This document shows, one piece after another, positions 5,346 to 42,367 of a stretch of DNA of 64,000 bases; position 1 is the stretch's first letter; every line of letters starts with the position of its first letter. The notes below the pieces were generated by a model that was not told the DNA's origin, searched no databases, and was given only the letters and a program-made list of their open reading frames with translations. Both the position numbers and the translations under genes were made by a program. Source of the DNA: Alphaproteobacteria bacterium (GTDB lineage: Bacteria; Pseudomonadota; Alphaproteobacteria; Rs-D84); NCBI GenBank assembly GCA_017472065.1, contig JAFURB010000007.1, positions 64,626-128,625 on the forward strand, in the 5' to 3' direction.

Positions 5346-6404
5346 CTAGATTGTATCAAAACTGGTGATAAATATTCCGGCCCCGGCAATAATAATCAAT
5401 GGTGGTGCAATAATCGCCAACAGTGGTGGTAACGCACCCGTTGCCCCCAGGGCATTGAACATATTGGTCAGGAAATATACCGCAAAGCAGGTTAAAATCC
5501 CAATGCTGAATTTTATACCAAAACTGTAGTTGCGGCGCTGTTTCGTTTGGGAAAATGCAACCCCCAATGTCGCCATGGCAATCATTGTTAATGGCAAGAA
5601 TAGCAGGGTCCAAAACTGAACCAGGTGACCGCGTGTTGGTGCGCCAATGTCAGACATTTTTTCAATGAATTCAGGTAAATCCCAAAATGAAATCTGGTCG
5701 GGTTGCAGGTATCTGTCCAAAACGGTTTGTGGGTTTAACAATGTTTCCATATGCCAATCAGATTTACGCATGTTGCCGTTGTTGTCCCAGATTGTGGCGT
5801 TTGTTGCATTTAATCCGTCGTTTGACAGACGTACGGTTTCCGCCTGAATCCGTTCTGTTAACTTAAAAGATGGGTCCTGGAAAAATATGGTTGTGTTTTC
5901 AAATATCAATATGTTGCCGGATTTGTGCATCGTGTCAGCGTTTAATGTAGTGTATCCGTTATCTGATGCCTCACGCAGCCAGATTTGATTATCAACCAAT
6001 TGCAGGTGTTCGGGGGTGATGTTATCCGTGCTGACCCGGACGGAATAGGGATTGACCAGTGTGGTTGCAATAATGCCAATCAGGGCCGCGCCAATAAAAA
6101 ATGGACGGGATGCCTGGTATGGGGACATTCCGGCACTGGATACAATAATACTTTCACTGGATTTAGTCAGGTTATATGATGCCAATAAGGTTCCCATAAA
6201 TACCGCCAATGGCAAGAACAGTGGTACATATTCCAGTAATCGTACCCATGATTCATAAAGGGCAGCAAAAGCATCTGGATTTGATGGCAAGCGTTCTACA
6301 AATGTCACCGCCAAAATAATCCCGCACACAACAAGCATTACCAGGCCAAATCCACTGAAAAATCGGCGCATTAAAAATCTGGTTAAGATATTAAGTCTAA
6401 ACAT
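5346..6404 (-). CDS. LPS export ABC permease, LptF/LptG (YjgP/YjgQ) family
   Basis: 352 aa. It has an N-terminal 3-TM block, a periplasmic beta-jellyroll-like middle region and a C-terminal 3-TM block, which is typical of the YjgP/YjgQ family. Confidence 0.7.
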   Translation of the reverse strand: MFRLNILTRFLMRRFFSGFGLVMLVVCGIILAVTFVERLPSNPDAFAALYESWVRLLEYVPLFLPLAVFMGTLLASYNLTKSSESIIVSSAGMSPYQASRPFFIGAALIGIIATTLVNPYSVRVSTDNITPEHLQLVDNQIWLREASDNGYTTLNADTMHKSGNILIFENTTIFFQDPSFKLTERIQAETVRLSNDGLNATNATIWDNNGNMRKSDWHMETLLNPQTVLDRYLQPDQISFWDLPEFIEKMSDIGAPTRGHLVQFWTLLFLPLTMIAMATLGVAFSQTKQRRNYSFGIKFSIGILTCFAVYFLTNMFNALGATGALPPLLAIIAPPLIIIAGAGIFITSFDTI

Positions 6405-6492
6405 AGCCTAAATTATAGACCGAAGATTTCCTAATTGCAAAATTAAAATGAATCCTTATAATTTGGTTACAAAAAATAATAGGAAGTTAAAA

Positions 6493-6963
6493 ATGGATAA
6501 AAAGCCAATTTCACGCGCAGGGTTTGATAACCTGATTAAGGAATTAAAGGATTTGAAAGAGGTTCAACGCCCTGAAATCTTGAAAACTGTCCAGTGGGCG
6601 CGGTCACTGGGGGATTTGTCTGAAAATGCAGATTACAGCGCGGCCAAGGAAAAACAGCGCCAAATTGATAAGCGGATTCAGTTTATCGAAGGGGTTATTG
6701 AAAATGCCACCATTATTGATGTGGACAGTCTGTCGGGTAATCGTGTTGTGTTCGGTGCGCGTGTCACCGCCGAAGATGATGATGGCAATGTTATGCAGTG
6801 TCGTATTTTGTCTGATATTGAATCAGATGGTCGCACGGTGATTTCGTGTACATCACCGGTGGGGCGCGCTATGATTGGGCGATGTGTTGGTGATACATGT
6901 ATTGTAAAGTTGCCAGGTGGTGAAAAAGAATATGAAATTTTAGAAGTAAAATTCAAGGATTAA
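6493..6963 (+). CDS. greA: transcription elongation factor GreA
   Basis: The start is taken at MDKKPISRAGFDNLIKELKDLK, with an aggaag SD at 6481-6486. There is a coiled-coil N-terminus with DLSENADYSAAKE and a Gre C-terminal domain. Confidence 0.9.
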   Translation: MDKKPISRAGFDNLIKELKDLKEVQRPEILKTVQWARSLGDLSENADYSAAKEKQRQIDKRIQFIEGVIENATIIDVDSLSGNRVVFGARVTAEDDDGNVMQCRILSDIESDGRTVISCTSPVGRAMIGRCVGDTCIVKLPGGEKEYEILEVKFKD

Positions 6964-33483: not shown

Positions 33484-33499
33484 TGCGGAATACATAGGA

Positions 33500-33600
33500 C
33501 TGGATTGCCACGCTACGCTCGCAATGACAAGGGGATTAAGAATCCAGGAGATTAAACACATTTGTCATTGCGAGGGAGCAGGGCGACCGTGGCAATCCAG
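33500..33600. repeat. palindromic MITE/REP-like element (family 'tgtcattgcgagg...cgtggcaatccag')
   Basis: ctggattgccacgctacgctcgcaatgaca (33500-33529) faces tgtcattgcgagggagcagggcgaccgtggcaatccag (33563-33600). The same unit recurs at 36.9-37.2 kb and 39.2-39.3 kb. Confidence 0.8.
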
Positions 33601-33796
33601 TAAATATAATCAAACTATAAATCTTGATTTCCCCGAAAAATAGGCGTATGATAATCATCATGAAACAAATTTATATGTTCTTTACAACAACTACTACAAC
33701 CCCGTTGGGGGTGTAATTTCTGTATTGCGGTGGGCCGCGTTAATTCTTATAATCAATCAGTCAAAAAATAATAAAAAACACTAAGGGACAGTTATT

Positions 33797-36882: not shown

Positions 36883-37238
36883 CCCATTGTCATCGCGAGG
36901 GTGTGAAACACCCGTGGCGATCCAGTAAATAGAAACAAATAGGAATACATAAAACTGGATTGCCGCGCCTGCGCTTTGCTTGGCTCGCAATGACAACTCG
37001 TCGCCAAGGCTTTGGGTTGCAGGCAAACCCGTCGCCAAGGTTTTGGGGTGTGGGCAAGAGCCACGGTGGGGCTAGCCCCATTGTCATCGCGAGGGTGTGA
37101 AACACCCGTGGCGATCCAGTAAATAGAAACAAATAGGAATATATAAGACTGGATTGCCACGCCTGCGCTTTGCTTGGCTCGCAATGACAACCCGTCGCGC
37201 TGTCGCTGCGCCGCGACAAGAACCACGGGATGACAACA
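36883..37238. repeat. cluster of palindromic repeat elements: about 115-nt composite element present twice (36883-36997, 37077-37191; period 194 nt)
   Basis: cccattgtcatcgcgagggtgtgaaacacccgtggcgatccagtaaatagaaacaaataggaata[c/t]ataa[a/g]actggattgcc[g/a]cgcctgcgctttgcttggctcgcaatgacaac occurs twice. A further motif ccacgggatgacaac at 37224-37238 recurs at 39174-39188. Confidence 0.9.
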
Positions 37239-37680: not shown

Positions 37681-39015
37681 ATGACACGAAAAATATTTTT
37701 AACATCCGTTATTGCGATGGGGATTGTGTGCGGTGCCGGTGCGGCACGTGCCGAATCGTTTCCATCCAGCGGATATATGCAAGAAAACAAGACATACGAA
37801 TCGGCGGCGACATATAAAAACACGGGTGTGTACGATGGCGAAGTGTCTGCGACGGCGGAATATACCGACACAATGTACCAGATTGCGGCGGGAACATATC
37901 TGCCCGCGGCCAGCGAAGGTGTAACCGAATCTTGTCCCGCCAACAGTTATTGCCCCGGGGCCAGCAATGTTACATATAATGCGACCGCGGCCCAGGGATT
38001 AACATCATGTCCATCATCGTATCCAAATTCATCCACGGGGGCCAGCAAGCAAACCCAATGCTATACCGCGTGTACATTGTCGGTTGCGAACATCGCGCAT
38101 GCGACGGCGGTAACCGGTAACGATTATTATGGCACCGGCACAGATACATGTGCGGCAACCGCATGTGAAAACGGATATCATGTATTAAATGAAATTGGTG
38201 TTATGGATACGACACCATTGATATCGGTTGATTACACCGAATCGGGTGATGGATATGCATATATTAGTGCCAGTGGCAATGCCAGCAACAGTAATTTATC
38301 GGATGCGGGCCTGACCGAAAATAACACATGGGCGTCGCATTTTGACTATGGCACGGTTTATGGCCATGCCAGTTGCCAGCCAACAGATAGCACAGGTTTG
38401 ATGGAGGCATTTAATGGTATGCAGTCTGTTATGAATGGTGATGTAACAGCCGAAGAATACGAATCGCAAATGACGGACATCATTGGTGCGGCCAAGGCCG
38501 CGTATATGGCGGATTTAGCGACGGGCATGATGGATGGGTCAAAAACCGAATACGATATGTACGAGGCGATGTTTATCATCCTGGGCCAGGATTATGACGC
38601 AGATTATGACACAAGCAGCACGGGCCAGTATTGCTGGTGCCAGATGACGGGCTATAAACCAACCGATGGTGAGCAAAGTTCAGTCGCGGCCGCCCCGTGG
38701 GTGTCCGGCAGCGACTTCGGCTCGGCGGACTATTGCGCGTCCTACTGTGCGGGCGACTGTGCGAACTACCTGCGGAACGATCGCGATGTCTCTCGCGCAT
38801 TCCGCGCTGCGGTGTTCGGGTCGCGTGGCGCCTTGGCGGCTGGCACATGCGAGGCTAATGAAATTAGCATCACATGGACAGACGCCGCGCCAGAGGACGT
38901 TGCCGCGAATAACGCCGGCATGTGTACATACGGCGGTGATATCCGCACACCGGTCAAGGCAGCAACCATCCCAGGTAAGACGTTCAAGGGATGGAAGTTC
39001 GTCAAGGTGAATTAA
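37681..39015 (+). CDS. DGR target (variable) protein: secreted Cys-rich protein carrying the VR
   Basis: The start is at MTRKIFLTSVIAMGIVCGAGAARA (a signal peptide) with an aggaagga SD. It is 444 aa and the VR occupies codons 335-383. The C-terminal tail ...IPGKTFKGWKF resembles a Listeria-Bacteroides repeat (Flg_new) ending. Confidence 0.85.
   Translation: MTRKIFLTSVIAMGIVCGAGAARAESFPSSGYMQENKTYESAATYKNTGVYDGEVSATAEYTDTMYQIAAGTYLPAASEGVTESCPANSYCPGASNVTYNATAAQGLTSCPSSYPNSSTGASKQTQCYTACTLSVANIAHATAVTGNDYYGTGTDTCAATACENGYHVLNEIGVMDTTPLISVDYTESGDGYAYISASGNASNSNLSDAGLTENNTWASHFDYGTVYGHASCQPTDSTGLMEAFNGMQSVMNGDVTAEEYESQMTDIIGAAKAAYMADLATGMMDGSKTEYDMYEAMFIILGQDYDADYDTSSTGQYCWCQMTGYKPTDGEQSSVAAAPWVSGSDFGSADYCASYCAGDCANYLRNDRDVSRAFRAAVFGSRGALAAGTCEANEISITWTDAAPEDVAANNAGMCTYGGDIRTPVKAATIPGKTFKGWKFVKVN
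38683..38829 (+). repeat. DGR variable repeat (VR)
   Basis: It aligns without gaps to 40052-40198 (offset 1369). It encodes VAAAPWVSGSDFGSADYCASYCAGDCANYLRNDRDVSRAFRAAVFGSRG. The identical flanks are 22 nt at the 5' end and 30 nt at the GC-rich 3' end (IMH-like). Confidence 0.9.
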
Positions 39016-39024
39016 TATCACCGT

Positions 39025-39047
39025 CCCCGCCCCCCCCGGGGGCGGGG
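39025..39047 (+). terminator. 10-bp all-GC hairpin just after the target gene stop
   Basis: ccccgccccc-ccc-gggggcgggg, with no T-run. Confidence 0.4.
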
Positions 39048-39049
39048 GC

Positions 39050-39323
39050 CAGCCCATTGTCATTCCGTGGCCTGACCCCGGAATCCAGGTGTATGCAAAT
39101 AAAAAGGCAAACATGACCTGGGTCCCGGTGTCAAGCACCGGGATGACAAAAAAGATAGGTCGCGGTGGGAAAACCACGGGATGACAACCCGCCATTGTCA
39201 TCGCGAGGGTGTGAAACACCCGTGGCGATCCAGTAAATAGAAACAAATAGGAATACATAAAACTGGATTGCCACCATACTACGCTAAAGCTTCGTGTGGC
39301 AGGCGCTGCGCCTCGCAATGACA
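39050..39323. repeat. cluster of palindromic repeat elements downstream of the DGR target gene
   Basis: A variant palindrome is present (cattgtcattccgtggcctgaccccggaatccagg ... cctgggtcccggtgtcaagcaccgggatgaca). It is followed by ccacgggatgacaac and a third copy of the 36883-type element (39192-39323). Confidence 0.85.
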
Positions 39324-39360
39324 AAAGGAAAGAGATAGTAAATAAAACAAAAGGTTCGTT

Positions 39361-39951
39361 TTGGGTAAACGGTATGTGTTTTTAATGACTGTGATTCCTT
39401 TTTCCACGAATTGTTTCGCGGATACGGCATTAGATATCTTGATGCCGGGCGCAGTCGTACAAAATGCATGTGTGTTCCAAAATACCGGCGTGTATGCAGA
39501 TTCATTTACAATGGTGCCTGTGTACGAAGATACGGTGTTTACATGTGAACGCGGATACTATTTGCCAAAAGAATCTGAAACATGTGCGTTGTGTCTGGGT
39601 GATGCATGGTGCCCCGGTGGGGAATATGTTTATTCGGTCGATATGGACAGTGGAATAAATGTTTGCCCGCCCGGAACATACGCACCAATTGGCATGTGGG
39701 AATCGGCACAGTGTGGACGAAGATTCTTTGTCGGGGATGCGTTTTTATACCTGCGCGTGGGAAAAACAACGGCACCCGCACTGCATTTCGATTTCGATGG
39801 TGATGGCACCGCAGATATGTTCGCCAATATGACAACGGCGGACGTGCCAATGAACATGGATACCGAACGTAAATTGAAAATACGTATCGGTGATGTGGTT
39901 TATTCGGTATATGACGATACCGTCACAATACCAAAAACATCAGGGGAATAA
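39361..39951 (+). CDS. secreted Cys-rich protein, N-terminal paralogue of the DGR target (no VR)
   Basis: 196 aa with a TTG start and a signal peptide. NTGVYADSFTMVPVYEDTVFTCERGYYLPKESETCALCLGDAWCPGG aligns to target NTGVYDGEVSATAEYTDTMYQIAAGTYLPAASEGVTESCPANSYCPGA. Confidence 0.65.
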   Translation: MGKRYVFLMTVIPFSTNCFADTALDILMPGAVVQNACVFQNTGVYADSFTMVPVYEDTVFTCERGYYLPKESETCALCLGDAWCPGGEYVYSVDMDSGINVCPPGTYAPIGMWESAQCGRRFFVGDAFLYLRVGKTTAPALHFDFDGDGTADMFANMTTADVPMNMDTERKLKIRIGDVVYSVYDDTVTIPKTSGE

Positions 39952-40051
39952 TCATGTTATTGTGTATATACCCGTTGATGTTAAATCAGGTTCCCGACAT
40001 GAAAATCGGGAATAGGTTGCATTGCCGTTTTTGCGGTTGGTTCGTCGTGTG

Positions 40052-40198
40052 GTCGCGGCCGCCCCGTGGGTGTTCAACAACGACAACGGATCGGCGGACA
40101 ATTGCGCGTCCAACTGTGCGAACAACTGTGCGAACAACCTGCAGAACGATAACGATGACAATCGCGCTTTCCGCGCTGCGGTGTTCGGGTCGCGTGGC
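40052..40198 (+). repeat. DGR template repeat (TR), non-coding
   Basis: It has 31 adenines, all within 40076-40161. In the VR reading frame it holds 10 AAC and 2 AAT codons. It lies in the gap between gene 39361-39951 and the accessory ORF. Confidence 0.9.
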
Positions 40199-40448
40199 TC
40201 CTGGGGACAAAAGTTTTGCTAACCTGTGGGACAAAGTGTACAAACACTTTTCAGATGTGAAAAAATCATCTGGTTTCGAATTGTGCCGTTTTTGTATCCA
40301 AGGCGGGGCGGTGTAACCTGTTTGGACGTGATGAAAAAAAGTCATGTCCCTACGAATACATTACGCAGGGAACATCTGGGTTGGTAACCAATTGTGGCGA
40401 AGACCCGGGATGTTCAATCGTTAAATATTAAAAACAAGAGATTGTACA

Positions 40449-40775
40449 ATGACAATTGATGAAATCAGTCATCTGGATGTCGATGGGGTCCGATGCTTTG
40501 CAGATATGGCACGCGATAAATTACCATTGCCGGGAACAAAAAAAAGACTGGAAGAAATCTTGAATAAAAAAATAGTCGTGCTGGATTTCCGTATCACAAA
40601 ATCTAATAAACGCGAAAATTCAGATTGCCTGCAAATTCAATTCTTGTGCGATGGGGATGTTCATGTCTTGTTCACAGGCAGCGGCGTTTTAATCGACCAA
40701 ATCCAGGCAATCAAAGATAAATTGCCATTGAAAACAGTCGTCGTGAAAATCGATAAATATTATTCCTTCTCGTGA
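40449..40775 (+). CDS. DGR-associated small accessory protein, not recognisably Avd-like
   Basis: 108-aa ORF located 10 nt upstream of the RT gene on the same strand. The sequence looks beta-rich (KKIVVLDFRITKS...CLQIQFLCDGDVHVLFTGSGVLIDQI) rather than the helical basic Avd pattern. Confidence 0.6.
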   Translation: MTIDEISHLDVDGVRCFADMARDKLPLPGTKKRLEEILNKKIVVLDFRITKSNKRENSDCLQIQFLCDGDVHVLFTGSGVLIDQIQAIKDKLPLKTVVVKIDKYYSFS

Positions 40776-40785
40776 TAAAAAAAAT

Positions 40786-41814
40786 ATGAAACGGTACAAA
40801 AATCTTTGGGATGATTTTATTTCTATGGACAATTTGGAATTGGCCGCAAAAAAAGCTGTGCAATCCAAAAAGTCTAAACGCGCAACTAAATTCTTTTTGA
40901 AACATAAAAAAAAGTTACTGAATAAACTGCAACGGCAATTGCAAAACGGAACATTTTATACATCGCAATACAAAATTAGAAAAATTTTCGAACCAAAAGA
41001 AAGACTGATTTATATATTGCCACTGTATCCAGACCATGTGTTGCACCATGCGTTGATAAATATTTTGGGACCAATTTGGCAAAGCGCATTCGTGCGCGAT
41101 TCGTATGCGTGTATCCCAGGCAAAGGACTGCACAAGGCATCCGGCACAATCATGCGATTTGTTCGACGAAATAAATATGTGTTGCAATGCGATATCAAAA
41201 AATTCTATCCGTCAATTAATCACAATGTTATGTTCAATATTATAAAAAGAAAAATCGGTGATAAAAAATTACTGGCGGTGTTGTGGGATATTATAAAATC
41301 GTGCGGGGATGAAAAAAATCTGCCAATCGGAAACCTGACCAGTCAATGGATGGGTAATGTTTATCTGAACGAATTAGACCATTTCGTCAAAGAAAATCTG
41401 CGATGTCGGGATTATATTCGGTACTGTGATGATTTCTGTCTGTTCGCAGATGATAAAAAAATTCTGTGGGAATATAAACAAAAAATCGATGAATTCGTGC
41501 GCGATAAATTAAAATTGGAATTTTCTAAGTCTTCAATTTATCCAGTGGCGCGTGGGGTGAACTTTATCGGGTATCGACATTTCAAAAAATTTATAATGCT
41601 GCGAAAATATGGCGCAAAAAAGTTGCGGCGACGCATCGAAAATATCGCAAATCATGATGATGTGTCTGATTTGGCGGTGGGGCAATTGGCCGCGTATCAC
41701 GGGTGGATTAAATGGTGTTGCAGTTATAATTTCTTGAAAAATCTGTGTCGGCGCGCGTGGCGAATTTCAAATGATTCAGGCCTGTTTATTTGGAACGGGA
41801 TGGCGTTTAGTTAA
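40786..41814 (+). CDS. DGR-type reverse transcriptase
   Basis: 342 aa. Motifs present are NLWDDF...NLELAAKKA, EPKERLIYILPLYPDHVLHHAL, DSYACIPGKGLHKA, CDIKKFYPSINH, LPIGNLTSQWMGNVYLNELDHF (the DGR hallmark [IL]GxxxSQ), YIRYCDDFCLF (YxDD) and GVNFIGY. Confidence 0.92.
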   Translation: MKRYKNLWDDFISMDNLELAAKKAVQSKKSKRATKFFLKHKKKLLNKLQRQLQNGTFYTSQYKIRKIFEPKERLIYILPLYPDHVLHHALINILGPIWQSAFVRDSYACIPGKGLHKASGTIMRFVRRNKYVLQCDIKKFYPSINHNVMFNIIKRKIGDKKLLAVLWDIIKSCGDEKNLPIGNLTSQWMGNVYLNELDHFVKENLRCRDYIRYCDDFCLFADDKKILWEYKQKIDEFVRDKLKLEFSKSSIYPVARGVNFIGYRHFKKFIMLRKYGAKKLRRRIENIANHDDVSDLAVGQLAAYHGWIKWCCSYNFLKNLCRRAWRISNDSGLFIWNGMAFS

Positions 41815-41815
41815 A

Positions 41816-41910
41816 TATCAACTGGGTGGCCGCGTTTTTTGCGTACGCACATTTTAACTGCGTTCCACTTTCTTTGAAGTGTTGTACGCGGCGCGGCCCC
41901 CCAGTTGATA
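41816..41910. repeat. 19-nt inverted repeat pair separated by 57 nt, immediately 3' of the RT gene
   Basis: tatcaactgggtggccgcg (41816-41834) faces cgcggccccccagttgata (41892-41910), with one mismatch. Confidence 0.6.
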
Positions 41911-41933
41911 AAAAAATCCCCCACACGGGGGAT
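41909..41933 (-). terminator. intrinsic terminator of dksA (may also stop RT transcription)
   Basis: The minus strand reads aatcccccgtgtgggggattttttt. Confidence 0.75.
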
Positions 41934-41935
41934 TG

Positions 41936-42367
41936 TTATTTCTTGCGGGCTTCGTATTCTTCTTGTTCTTCGACCGTCATGGTCGCCAATGGGCGTGCCA
42001 TCATCCGTTTAAGACCAATTTCATCGCCGGATACAACACTGAAACCATATGTGCCGTTTTCAATGCGGGCCAGGGCGGCATTAACCTTTTGTAATAATTT
42101 ATTGCTGCGTTCAGACATACGCAGGTCCATGGTGATATCTTGGTTATACGATGCGTTGTCCGATTCGTCACCGGCACCGGCGGCCTCGGTCTTGTCGGCC
42201 ATGCGGACCGCGTTTAATACTTCGTCGCGTTCGCTAAGCAGTTCTTCGCGTTGGTTGTTCAAGATGTTATAGAAGTATGCCAACTGTTCCGCGCACATAT
42301 ATGGTTCAGACAGTTTTGGCTTGTACTTTGATGACAGTTCAATTGTCTTGTAATTAGCTGTTGCCAT
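41936..42367 (-). CDS. dksA: RNA polymerase-binding factor DksA (no Cys4 zinc finger)
   Basis: 143 aa with a coiled coil carrying the DxxDxA tip (DESDNA). The C-terminal ENGTYGFSVVSGDEIGLKRMMARPLATMTVEEQE is homologous to the DksA zinc-finger region but contains no Cys. Confidence 0.8.
   Translation of the reverse strand: MATANYKTIELSSKYKPKLSEPYMCAEQLAYFYNILNNQREELLSERDEVLNAVRMADKTEAAGAGDESDNASYNQDITMDLRMSERSNKLLQKVNAALARIENGTYGFSVVSGDEIGLKRMMARPLATMTVEEQEEYEARKK

Follow-up and report, generated by a model that had tools for sequence, protein, structure and literature searches.

The DNA analysed here is a 64-kb stretch (hereafter the window), whose sequence is contained in a 190-kb metagenome scaffold (ENA ERZ28653980). 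Between positions 37681 and 41814 it holds, all on the + strand according to open reading frame (ORF) and gene calls, a gene for a target protein that includes a variable repeat (VR), a gene for a cysteine-rich protein (ORF196), an intergenic template repeat (TR) followed by a conserved structured RNA, a gene for a small accessory protein that we call ACC, and a gene for a reverse transcriptase (RT). We regard this segment as very probably a chromosomal diversity-generating retroelement (DGR), its host being a gut alphaproteobacterium that is uncultured and related to Candidatus Enterousia. Among named genomes, the closest are metagenome-assembled genomes (MAGs) of Candidatus Enterousia and of other alphaproteobacteria from gut or rumen, and no cultured genome was found among the matches to the locus. 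Related contigs and loci are designated below by L-numbers, and related proteins by P-numbers.

An adenine-biased repeat pair and a DGR-type reverse transcriptase

The VR and the TR align over 147 nt with no gaps, at an offset of 1369, and differ at 20 positions. Eighteen of these are adenines in the TR, and the two remaining mismatches read T40074>C and T40168>A. With 31 adenines among the 147 positions, the probability that at least 18 of 20 mismatches would fall on them by chance is 5.9e-13 (hypergeometric, here equal to Fisher's test). An earlier note on this DNA had claimed the same ungapped alignment and offset, with 18 mismatches at listed TR adenines, 31 TR adenines in total and 10 AAC and 2 AAT codons; a machine recount reproduced each of these figures, including the exact positions. 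The similarity ends abruptly on both sides, a repeat search extending the pair to 154 nt at 86%, and no further copy of the TR, that is, no second VR, was found within the 64-kb window.

Read in the frame of the target gene, 30 of the 31 TR adenines lie in codon positions 1 or 2, and the codons concerned are 10 AAC, 2 AAT, 3 GAC, 2 GAT, 1 CAG and 1 GGA. Allowing 15 residues for each AAY codon (Y being C or T) and 4 for each GAY or CAG codon yields a repertoire of about 5e17 protein variants. The value of 15^12 given by the earlier note holds as a lower bound; as a total it falls short, since the six GAY or CAG codons raise it to the figure given here.

The best match of the RT in the PDB is the Bordetella RT (bRT; 8ub7, E = 8.3e-47, residues 2-317), and the protein matches phrog_1423 at 6e-96. 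In the PDB, group II intron RTs reached E values no better than 2e-17 and the retron RT Ec86 reached 4e-05. In NCBIfam, every model of group II, retron, Abi and DRT proteins scores it far below the respective cut-off (109 against 300 bits for TIGR04416, 65 against 235 for retron St85 and 59 against 200 for Drt3a), and PADLOC matches it weakly to generic RT and DRT models. At the gathering threshold, Rfam returned two tRNAs only over the window, and no group II intron or retron RNA. The 342-aa ORF is confirmed, and it carries the LPIGNLTSQ motif and the catalytic YCDD that had been claimed for it. DGR RTs bear the signature [I/V/L]GxxxSQ in place of QGxxxSP, and two residues of bRT, Arg74 and Ile181, have been shown to promote adenine mutagenesis (PMC7826257). 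The IGNLTSQ segment of the window RT fits this signature, and alignment to bRT shows that the equivalents of Arg74 and Ile181 are kept. As judged from these sequence comparisons, the 342-aa RT belongs with the DGR RTs, and not with those of group II introns, retrons or Abi systems.

Table 1. Positions of the features of the locus in the window.
Feature	Position	Strand	Evidence
Target (variable protein) gene, 444 aa	37681-39015	+	ORF and gene calls
VR, codons 335-383 of the target	38683-38829	+	Ungapped 147-nt match to the TR
Candidate target-recognition hairpin	38846-38876	+	DNA folding; conserved coding sequence, weak evidence
C-terminal Flg_new-like domain of the target	38848-39012	+	Relatives P0149 and P0226 match PF09479
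ORF196, Cys-rich, 196 aa	39361-39951	+	BLASTP paralogue of the target N terminus
TR, intergenic, 31 adenines	40052-40198	+	Match to the VR
TR-to-ACC spacer, 250 nt	40199-40448	+	
Conserved structured RNA directly 3' of the TR	40199-40418	+	24-locus covariation
Accessory protein ACC, 108 aa	40449-40775	+	ORF; AF2 model; RT linkage
DGR-type RT, 342 aa	40786-41814	+	Motifs, profile and PDB matches
TR-RNA-ACC-RT presence/absence module, ~1.95 kb	39959-41908		Alignment of the window with L078
19-nt inverted repeat, right edge of the module	41816-41834 / 41892-41910		Repeat search
Bidirectional dksA terminator hairpin	41915-41934		Terminator scan

Variation of the repeats between strains

We compared the locus with other metagenome contigs, that is, with other strains and samples and not with reads from within one population. 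An identical TR (100%) is present in the independent contigs L003, L083 and L084. Four VR alleles are represented by the window, L077, L082 and L083; they differ from the TR at 17-21 adenines and at 0-2 other positions. Among these alleles, 30 of the 31 positions that are adenine in the TR are polymorphic, against 3 of the 116 non-adenine positions. The earlier expectation that VR polymorphism would be confined to positions of TR adenines is borne out on these contigs, with an invariant TR. Furthermore, at its non-adenine positions the VR has 97-100% identity with the TR, while the 5' kilobase of the target gene that borders it reaches only 86-94% between these strains. An invariant TR, together with non-adenine VR positions that are conserved despite the divergence of the target, indicates that the VR has been overwritten since the strains diverged.

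A sister strain, represented by L078-L081 from four samples and with a target that is 88% identical, has no TR, ACC or RT. Its homologue of ORF196 is followed by about 4 nt (L078 5681-5686) and then by dksA, at the place where the window has 39959-41908. The block formed by the TR, the RNA, ACC and the RT is hence a clean 1.95-kb presence/absence polymorphism between close strains and, as the target and ORF196 are retained in its absence, the machinery can be acquired or lost in one piece. The VR of the sister strain is identical in the four samples and has 7 non-adenine differences from the window TR. That the VR varies where the module is present and is fixed where it is absent points to an element that is active or was so recently, and, as far as contig sequences tell, the DGR has evidently been active in recent times. 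The chromosomal, intact DGR of the earlier note thus stands: the ORFs are intact, the motifs are present and the VR alleles vary at TR-adenine positions.

The same contigs offered some further observations. Between the window (37681-38682) and L083 (3501-4514) the target gene is 86% identical, and the DGR core (38830-42000) is 97-99% identical; on this sequence comparison, the N-terminal part of the target evolves or recombines much faster than the DGR machinery. Contig L004, a short contig with ACC and RT, opens with 52 TR-like nucleotides (4-55) that show 5 differences from the TR, probably because the assembly joined the TR to a VR allele through the 3' end that both have in common. L077 ends about 400 nt downstream of the target, and DGR loci break short-read assemblies.

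ACC, an unannotated protein linked to DGR reverse transcriptases

The accessory ORF reported by the earlier note is present beside the RT gene; its product is not Avd, and is predicted to resemble an oligonucleotide/oligosaccharide-binding (OB) fold. ACC has no match in Pfam, NCBIfam, PHROGs (E up to 0.1), PADLOC or the sequences of the PDB, whether it is searched with its own sequence or with a profile. Its close relatives form 111 clusters, with 14 invariant columns over 45 sequences, and a profile search recovered 987 clusters (50% identity) at E <=1e-3, 447 of which reach E <=1e-10. Members of the family are nearly all 95-110 aa long, and those that bear a name are all called 'hypothetical protein'.

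The AlphaFold2 (AF2) model of ACC, with a predicted local distance difference test (pLDDT) score of 91.7, has a short helical N-terminal part followed by beta strands 41-51, 59-67 and 70-76, an alpha helix 79-87, and beta strands 94-101 and 104-107. This order of elements is predicted to be the classical OB-fold topology, beta1-beta2-beta3-alpha-beta4-beta5. Foldseek found no significant match to the model in the PDB, where the top matches lie at E = 0.05-0.5 and TM 0.3-0.5; these include RuvBL2 domain II, SSB, HIN-200, Teb1 and RPA, which we take to be OB folds. In BFVD the model matches an 'SsDNA binding protein' at E = 0.02. The best viral structure matches are RT-annotated proteins (E = 4e-6 and 1e-5, the latter at 24% identity), and the next are uncharacterised phage proteins of about 100 aa.

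The recognised accessory classes of DGRs are Avd, HRDC, MSL and CH1 (PMC5758913, PMC10053308), and ACC was assigned to none of them. Avd (accessory variability determinant) is a PF05635-like four-helix bundle of about 128 aa with an isoelectric point (pI) of about 9.5; ACC has a pI of 7.7 (family mean 8.2), no sequence or profile match to Avd chains and a different predicted fold, and a Foldseek search of the PDB with its model does not retrieve Avd. HRDC (PF00570) and MSL (MutS_I, PF01624) were rejected as ACC has no Pfam match, and CH1 is set apart by its described length of 160-169 aa and pI of 4.7. We found no description of the ACC family in the literature, the classes compared being those above and not PAG1-4 of Wu et al., and on Avd-independent or OB-fold DGR accessories we found only Wu et al. 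2018 and general reviews. On these searches, ACC is an unannotated family, by which Avd is replaced here.

The ACC profile yielded 71 genome loci, besides a viral set of 80 IMG/VR loci. A DGR-type RT adjoins ACC in nearly all of the genome loci (wherever the contig allows) and in 80 of the 80 viral ones. The order is ACC then RT in Alphaproteobacteria, and RT then ACC in 77 of the viral loci and in nearly all loci from Omnitrophota, Nitrospirota, Desulfobacterota, Spirochaetota, Bacteroidota, Fibrobacterota, ANME-2 and Woesearchaeota. The gap between both genes has a median of 56 nt in the viral set, with some overlaps, and adenine-biased TR/VR pairs were found in 48 genome loci and 57 viral loci with ACC. 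In addition, RT and ACC are fused in frame in P0313 (414 aa), in P0270 (507 aa) and in a 15-member cluster from many contigs (mostly 421 aa); in these, as in P0340, the RVT_1 domain is N-terminal and the ACC domain C-terminal. Judged by this genomic linkage, ACC is a component of DGRs, and we infer that it is required and that it binds the RT plus RNA or cDNA. More tentatively, and as a possibility that we hold to be sizeable, ACC may as an OB-fold cofactor define a widespread class of Avd-independent DGRs, in which it would bind the RT and the RNA 3' of the TR or the nascent cDNA and so fulfil the task of the Avd pentamer, and which would in this alphaproteobacterial branch have its own RNA and a variable scaffold with a fold other than C-type lectin (CLec).

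In phage-type DGRs with ACC, another conserved ORF (MKGFPxHLNT..., about 100 aa) comes directly after ACC; 46 related loci have it, 35 of them viral and 11 from genomes, and in L060, L062, L063, L065 and L070 it lies at about 6290-6620. It has no Pfam match and no homologue in the window, and may represent either an additional accessory gene or a phage gene that is conserved.

A structured RNA directly 3' of the template repeat

In an alignment of 24 loci, the spacer between the TR and ACC is conserved far beyond what would be expected for loci whose proteins are 50-60% identical. RNAalifold predicted 31 pairs on these loci, 16 of which have compensatory double changes. The proportion of paired cells is 96.6%, against 33-47% when the partners were slid by 1-3 columns, and the number of double-change pairs (16) compares with 3-5 in these slid controls. 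None of 500 shuffles reached the observed value on four of five measures, and 19 of 500 did so on the fifth, further pair types. The helices are formed by 40223-40227/40365-40369, 40230-40238/40245-40252, 40304-40307/40317-40320, 40387-40389/40396-40398 and 40370-40381/40403-40415, the last being a 12-bp helix with 9 covarying pairs. When folded as a single sequence, the RNA has a minimum free energy z-score of -3.4.

Searches of Rfam over 39900-40500 gave matches at chance level only, at E up to 10, so that the RNA belongs to no curated family. An nhmmer profile built on it detects the element in 58 alphaproteobacterial loci, directly after the TR wherever its position was examined. L055 has its TR at a distance from ACC, and there too the RNA element comes after the TR; in L038 both lie beyond the RT. 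The same profile did not detect the element in any phage-type locus. If the Sp segment of the Bordetella DGR RNA is taken as its analogue, this RNA is probably the part of the template RNA that serves ribonucleoprotein assembly and priming.

In two loci (L014 1706-2159 and L020 5170-5670) the element is split by about 300-360 nt between profile positions ~73 and ~175-180, presumably through an insertion in the variable central hairpins.

The target protein and its variable scaffold

The N terminus of the target resembles a signal peptide (MTRKIFLTSVIAMGIVCGAGAARA), and its N-terminal part is rich in Cys; the VR forms the end of its central alpha/beta domain. The claim of the earlier note that it is secreted keeps the N terminus in its favour, and rests on a by-eye reading together with the low mean pLDDT (25-28, AF2) of residues 1-20; from its sequence the protein is probably secreted, and we infer its location and function. 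No match to the target was found in Pfam, NCBIfam, PHROG or PDB sequences, the VR domain having no Pfam match even at E up to 10, and its 389 homologues, from gut and rumen alphaproteobacterial MAGs, are all unnamed or 'hypothetical'. The VR is not the C-terminal end of the protein, as 62 codons follow it. The domain that they encode resembles the Listeria-Bacteroides repeat (Flg_new), with the motif GKTFKGWKF and correspondence over the last ~40 residues; P0149 and P0226 match PF09479 at the aligned C terminus, and the window protein itself falls below threshold.

The AF2 model of the target has a pLDDT above 90 for residues 170-383, and of 90-96 across the VR, which is modelled with a strand at 340-345 and helices at 349-365 and 369-379. 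A Foldseek search with this model against the PDB, in which Mtd, TvpA, AvpA, TaqVP and FGE are present, returned nothing at E <2 and hence no CLec variable protein. The consensus of the VR family is APWVFxxDxGSAxxCAxxCAxxCAxxLxxxxxxxRxFRAAVFG, in which AAY codons stand at i, i+4, i+7, i+8, i+11 and i+12 and invariant cysteines at i+1, i+5 and i+9. This spacing has the periodicity of a helix and hence gives independent support to the helical model. Many targets of Enterousia-like DGRs have the same scaffold, CWCxMT...WVF...CAxxCAxxC...FRxxVFG, whereas phage-type DGRs with ACC have ordinary Mtd-like VRs instead. The VR is thus modelled as a Cys-rich helix with one variable face, and on this model a scaffold other than CLec is likely but unproven; we hold it unproven because AvpA was unclassifiable by sequence until it was solved as a CLec protein (PMC5006420).

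ORF196 is a VR-less paralogue of target residues 3-111 (30% identity, E = 3e-12, BLASTP) and bears a signal peptide. We considered it as a second target or as an Avd and rejected both, as it has no VR, is paralogous to the N terminus of the target and is kept in the strain without the module. It is probably not part of the mutagenesis machinery.

Proposed mechanism and alternative explanations

In the mechanism that we propose, an RNA would be made over the TR and its structured 3' extension of about 220 nt. The RT would copy the TR into cDNA, misincorporating opposite template adenines, and the 108-aa ACC would probably work with it, in the place that Avd has in the Bordetella phage system. 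The cDNA would then replace the VR in the target gene. Up to 18 codons would be recoded, located in the strand-loop segment, on one face of the Cys-rich helix and in the following loop, with an outcome of up to ~5e17 variants of a presumed ligand-binding surface.

Several observations weigh against a working DGR of this kind. Besides the two non-adenine differences between the window VR and the TR, there is no clear difference between the sites for initiation of mutagenic homing (IMH and IMH*), VR and TR being identical over their last 30 nt, which are GC-rich. The imperfect inverted repeat found by DNA folding 17 nt 3' of the VR, with a GAA loop, recurs in L083, L007 and L008 (the latter with CGTG/CACG instead of CATG/CATG); it lies inside conserved coding sequence, and is hence weak evidence for a role in target recognition. 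The promoter scan found no convincing sigma-70 promoter upstream of the TR, promoter-like sites being fewer than in shuffled sequence, and the only clear terminator is that of dksA. The VR alleles were taken from several strains and samples and not from one clonal population. Lastly, the OB-fold assignment of ACC consists of a predicted topology and of the Foldseek matches at E 0.05-0.5 in the PDB.

Some of these points would suit a fossil DGR, now inactive, in which the VR/TR pattern and the strain differences are remnants of ancient retrohoming: the window VR has its two non-adenine mismatches, the data on activity are indirect, being drawn from contig comparison, and a sister lineage has lost the whole module. 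We nevertheless consider a fossil very unlikely, as the ORFs are intact with their catalytic and DGR-signature motifs, and as the TR is 100% identical across strains that differ by 6-14% in the 5' region of the target, with VR non-adenine positions at 97-100%. True loss of the module, on the other hand, does show decay, in the 7 non-adenine mismatches of the sister strain. An ordinary duplication or gene-conversion tract lying next to an unrelated retroelement RT, of group II intron, retron or defence origin, is so improbable that we reject it. The sub-threshold matches of the RT to group II, retron and DRT models are what can be said for it, but these models score far below their cut-offs (TIGR04416, for example), the RT has its best matches among DGR RTs, and Rfam detects the RNA of neither group II introns nor retrons in the window. 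The mismatch spectrum itself (p = 5.9e-13), found with the same adenine bias in more than 100 related loci, refutes it further.

Taking the element as a DGR, two of its parts admit other explanations. ACC could be a mere neighbour or hitch-hiker, with the RT acting alone ('Architecture A' of Wu et al.) or with an Avd encoded elsewhere. In support of this, a recognised accessory gene is missing from 29% of the DGRs that have been catalogued (PMC5758913), the role of ACC rests on genomic linkage and not on biochemistry, and our inspection covered 64 kb, with Pfam annotation from ~7 kb upstream to ~10 kb downstream of the RT. We judge it unlikely, given that ACC and the RT are adjacent in about 150 loci across bacterial phyla, archaea and viruses, that this linkage survives a swap of gene order and short or overlapping junctions, that in-frame fusions with the RT have arisen independently, and that the 14 invariant columns over 45 sequences reveal strong purifying selection. 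As for the VR domain, it could be a highly diverged CLec fold, in which case the helical AlphaFold model would be wrong. The VR ends in ...RAFRAAVFG, which in our view recalls the terminal GFR motif of FGE-type VRs. Moreover, every solved DGR variable protein is CLec, including AvpA (PMC5006420), and a large survey ties annotated VR regions systematically to CLec (PMC8144416). Against this stand the pLDDT of 90-96 across the VR, the lack of Foldseek matches at E <2 in the PDB and of Pfam matches at E up to 10, and the helical periodicity of AAY codons and invariant cysteines. We therefore find a hidden CLec fold the less probable explanation, while giving it appreciable weight.

Comparison with known DGRs

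The window DGR and that of Bordetella phage BPP-1 (mtd-avd-TR-brt) have homologous RTs, with the same [I/V/L]GxxxSQ motif and the equivalents of R74 and I181. In both, the TR and the VR are nearly identical and differ at adenines only, the TR is rich in AAY codons, an RNA segment lies immediately 3' of it (Sp in BPP-1 and the covarying element in the window), and a small accessory protein gene adjoins the RT gene. The accessory proteins differ: that of BPP-1 is Avd, a basic pentameric four-helix bundle, and that of the window is a predicted OB-fold-like alpha+beta protein of pI 7.7. The order of genes is TR-ACC-RT in the window and avd-TR-brt in BPP-1, and the window DGR is chromosomal and flanked by housekeeping genes whereas that of BPP-1 is phage-borne. 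Contrary to that of BPP-1, the window target is a cellular signal-peptide protein without a detectable CLec fold, and has a 62-residue domain after the VR.

Legionella pneumophila LdtA and Treponema denticola TvpA reportedly belong to cellular, chromosomal DGRs with signal-peptide-bearing surface or secreted targets, and the window DGR resembles them in being cellular and chromosomal and in having such a signal-peptide-bearing target. These DGRs are said to have Avd (plus MSL) or HRDC accessories, and CLec VR domains at the extreme C terminus; the window has instead ACC, an unclassified VR scaffold and a further domain after the VR.

A homologue of ACC lies directly after the RT in the DGR of the archaeal virus ANMV-1 (KP703175.1; PMC4372165). 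This protein, AJP62065.1, aligns with ACC with an hhalign probability of 99.7% and E = 1e-25, its gene being at 4980-5276 of L165 (ANMV-1). It is 'hypothetical' in GenBank, and no Avd Pfam match was found in the ANMV-1 cassette; the figure of the ANMV-1 paper shows an 'Avd' ORF (Paul et al. 2015, PMC4372165). Such ORFs have been termed Avd-like by pI, mass or physical properties (Nanoarchaeota figure legend of PMC4372165; PMC5006420). ANMV-1 and the viral VR-TR-RT-ACC DGRs share with the window the DGR-type RT and adenine-biased TR/VR pairs. They differ in having the RT before ACC and tail-fibre targets with C-terminal Mtd-like VRs (...GWRVVxLGG...), and the alphaproteobacterial RNA is not detectable in them by nhmmer.

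DGRs without avd were described by Wu et al. 2018 (Architecture A; Lineage 3; those with HRDC, MSL, CH1 or PAG1-4), who took them to imply Avd-independent mutagenic retrohoming (PMC5758913). The window DGR is like these in having no avd. PAG1-4 are each known from 3-4 DGRs (Wu et al., PMC5758913). About one quarter of catalogued DGRs have no Avd, and the question of how they work has stood since at least 2017 (PMC5758913). The window element is novel in architecture, being Avd-less, with ACC, a lineage-specific RNA and probably a new VR scaffold, and is not a new type of system.

DGRs are the most extreme natural diversifiers of proteins and are being made into tools for directed evolution. 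To our knowledge, their mechanism is known almost wholly from bRT-Avd of Bordetella. The locus described here offers a concrete handle on Avd-less DGRs, with a 342-aa RT, a 108-aa cofactor and a defined structured RNA, to which come about 990 cofactor clusters, natural RT-cofactor fusions and a strain without the module as a control. The helical Cys-rich VR scaffold would, if true, be the first predicted departure from CLec display of DGR variation. The element also exemplifies targeted hypermutation, here of a probably secreted protein and in gut symbionts whose lineage is poorly known.

Genomic neighbourhood and repeats around the element

The cassette is flanked by tatA upstream and by dksA, trxA and sufS downstream. 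Pfam annotation revealed no phage genes from ~7 kb upstream to ~10 kb downstream of the RT, and PADLOC found no defence-system context around the locus, the three non-RT proteins having no match. Small ORFs that overlap the TR (39954-40316 and others) were rejected as genes, being frame artefacts of the repeat with no support from gene callers.

Intergenic repeats of about 122 nt lie in tandem upstream of the target (36883-37004 and 37077-37198, 97% identical), with a partial copy of 81 nt downstream of it (39192-39274, 100% identical) and a weaker copy at 33487-33614. This family could be a repetitive extragenic palindrome (REP) or similar to miniature inverted-repeat transposable elements (MITE-like). 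In the sister strain without the module, a 102-aa GIY-YIG ORF takes the place of the upstream copies. A GC-only palindrome (CCGCCCCCCCCGGGGGCGGGGG) at 39027-39048, 12 nt after the target stop codon and with no T-run, may be an atypical terminator or a recombination-prone site. At the other end of the element, the arms of the 19-nt inverted repeat are 95% complementary and separated by a 57-nt spacer, and the first of them begins immediately after the RT stop codon.

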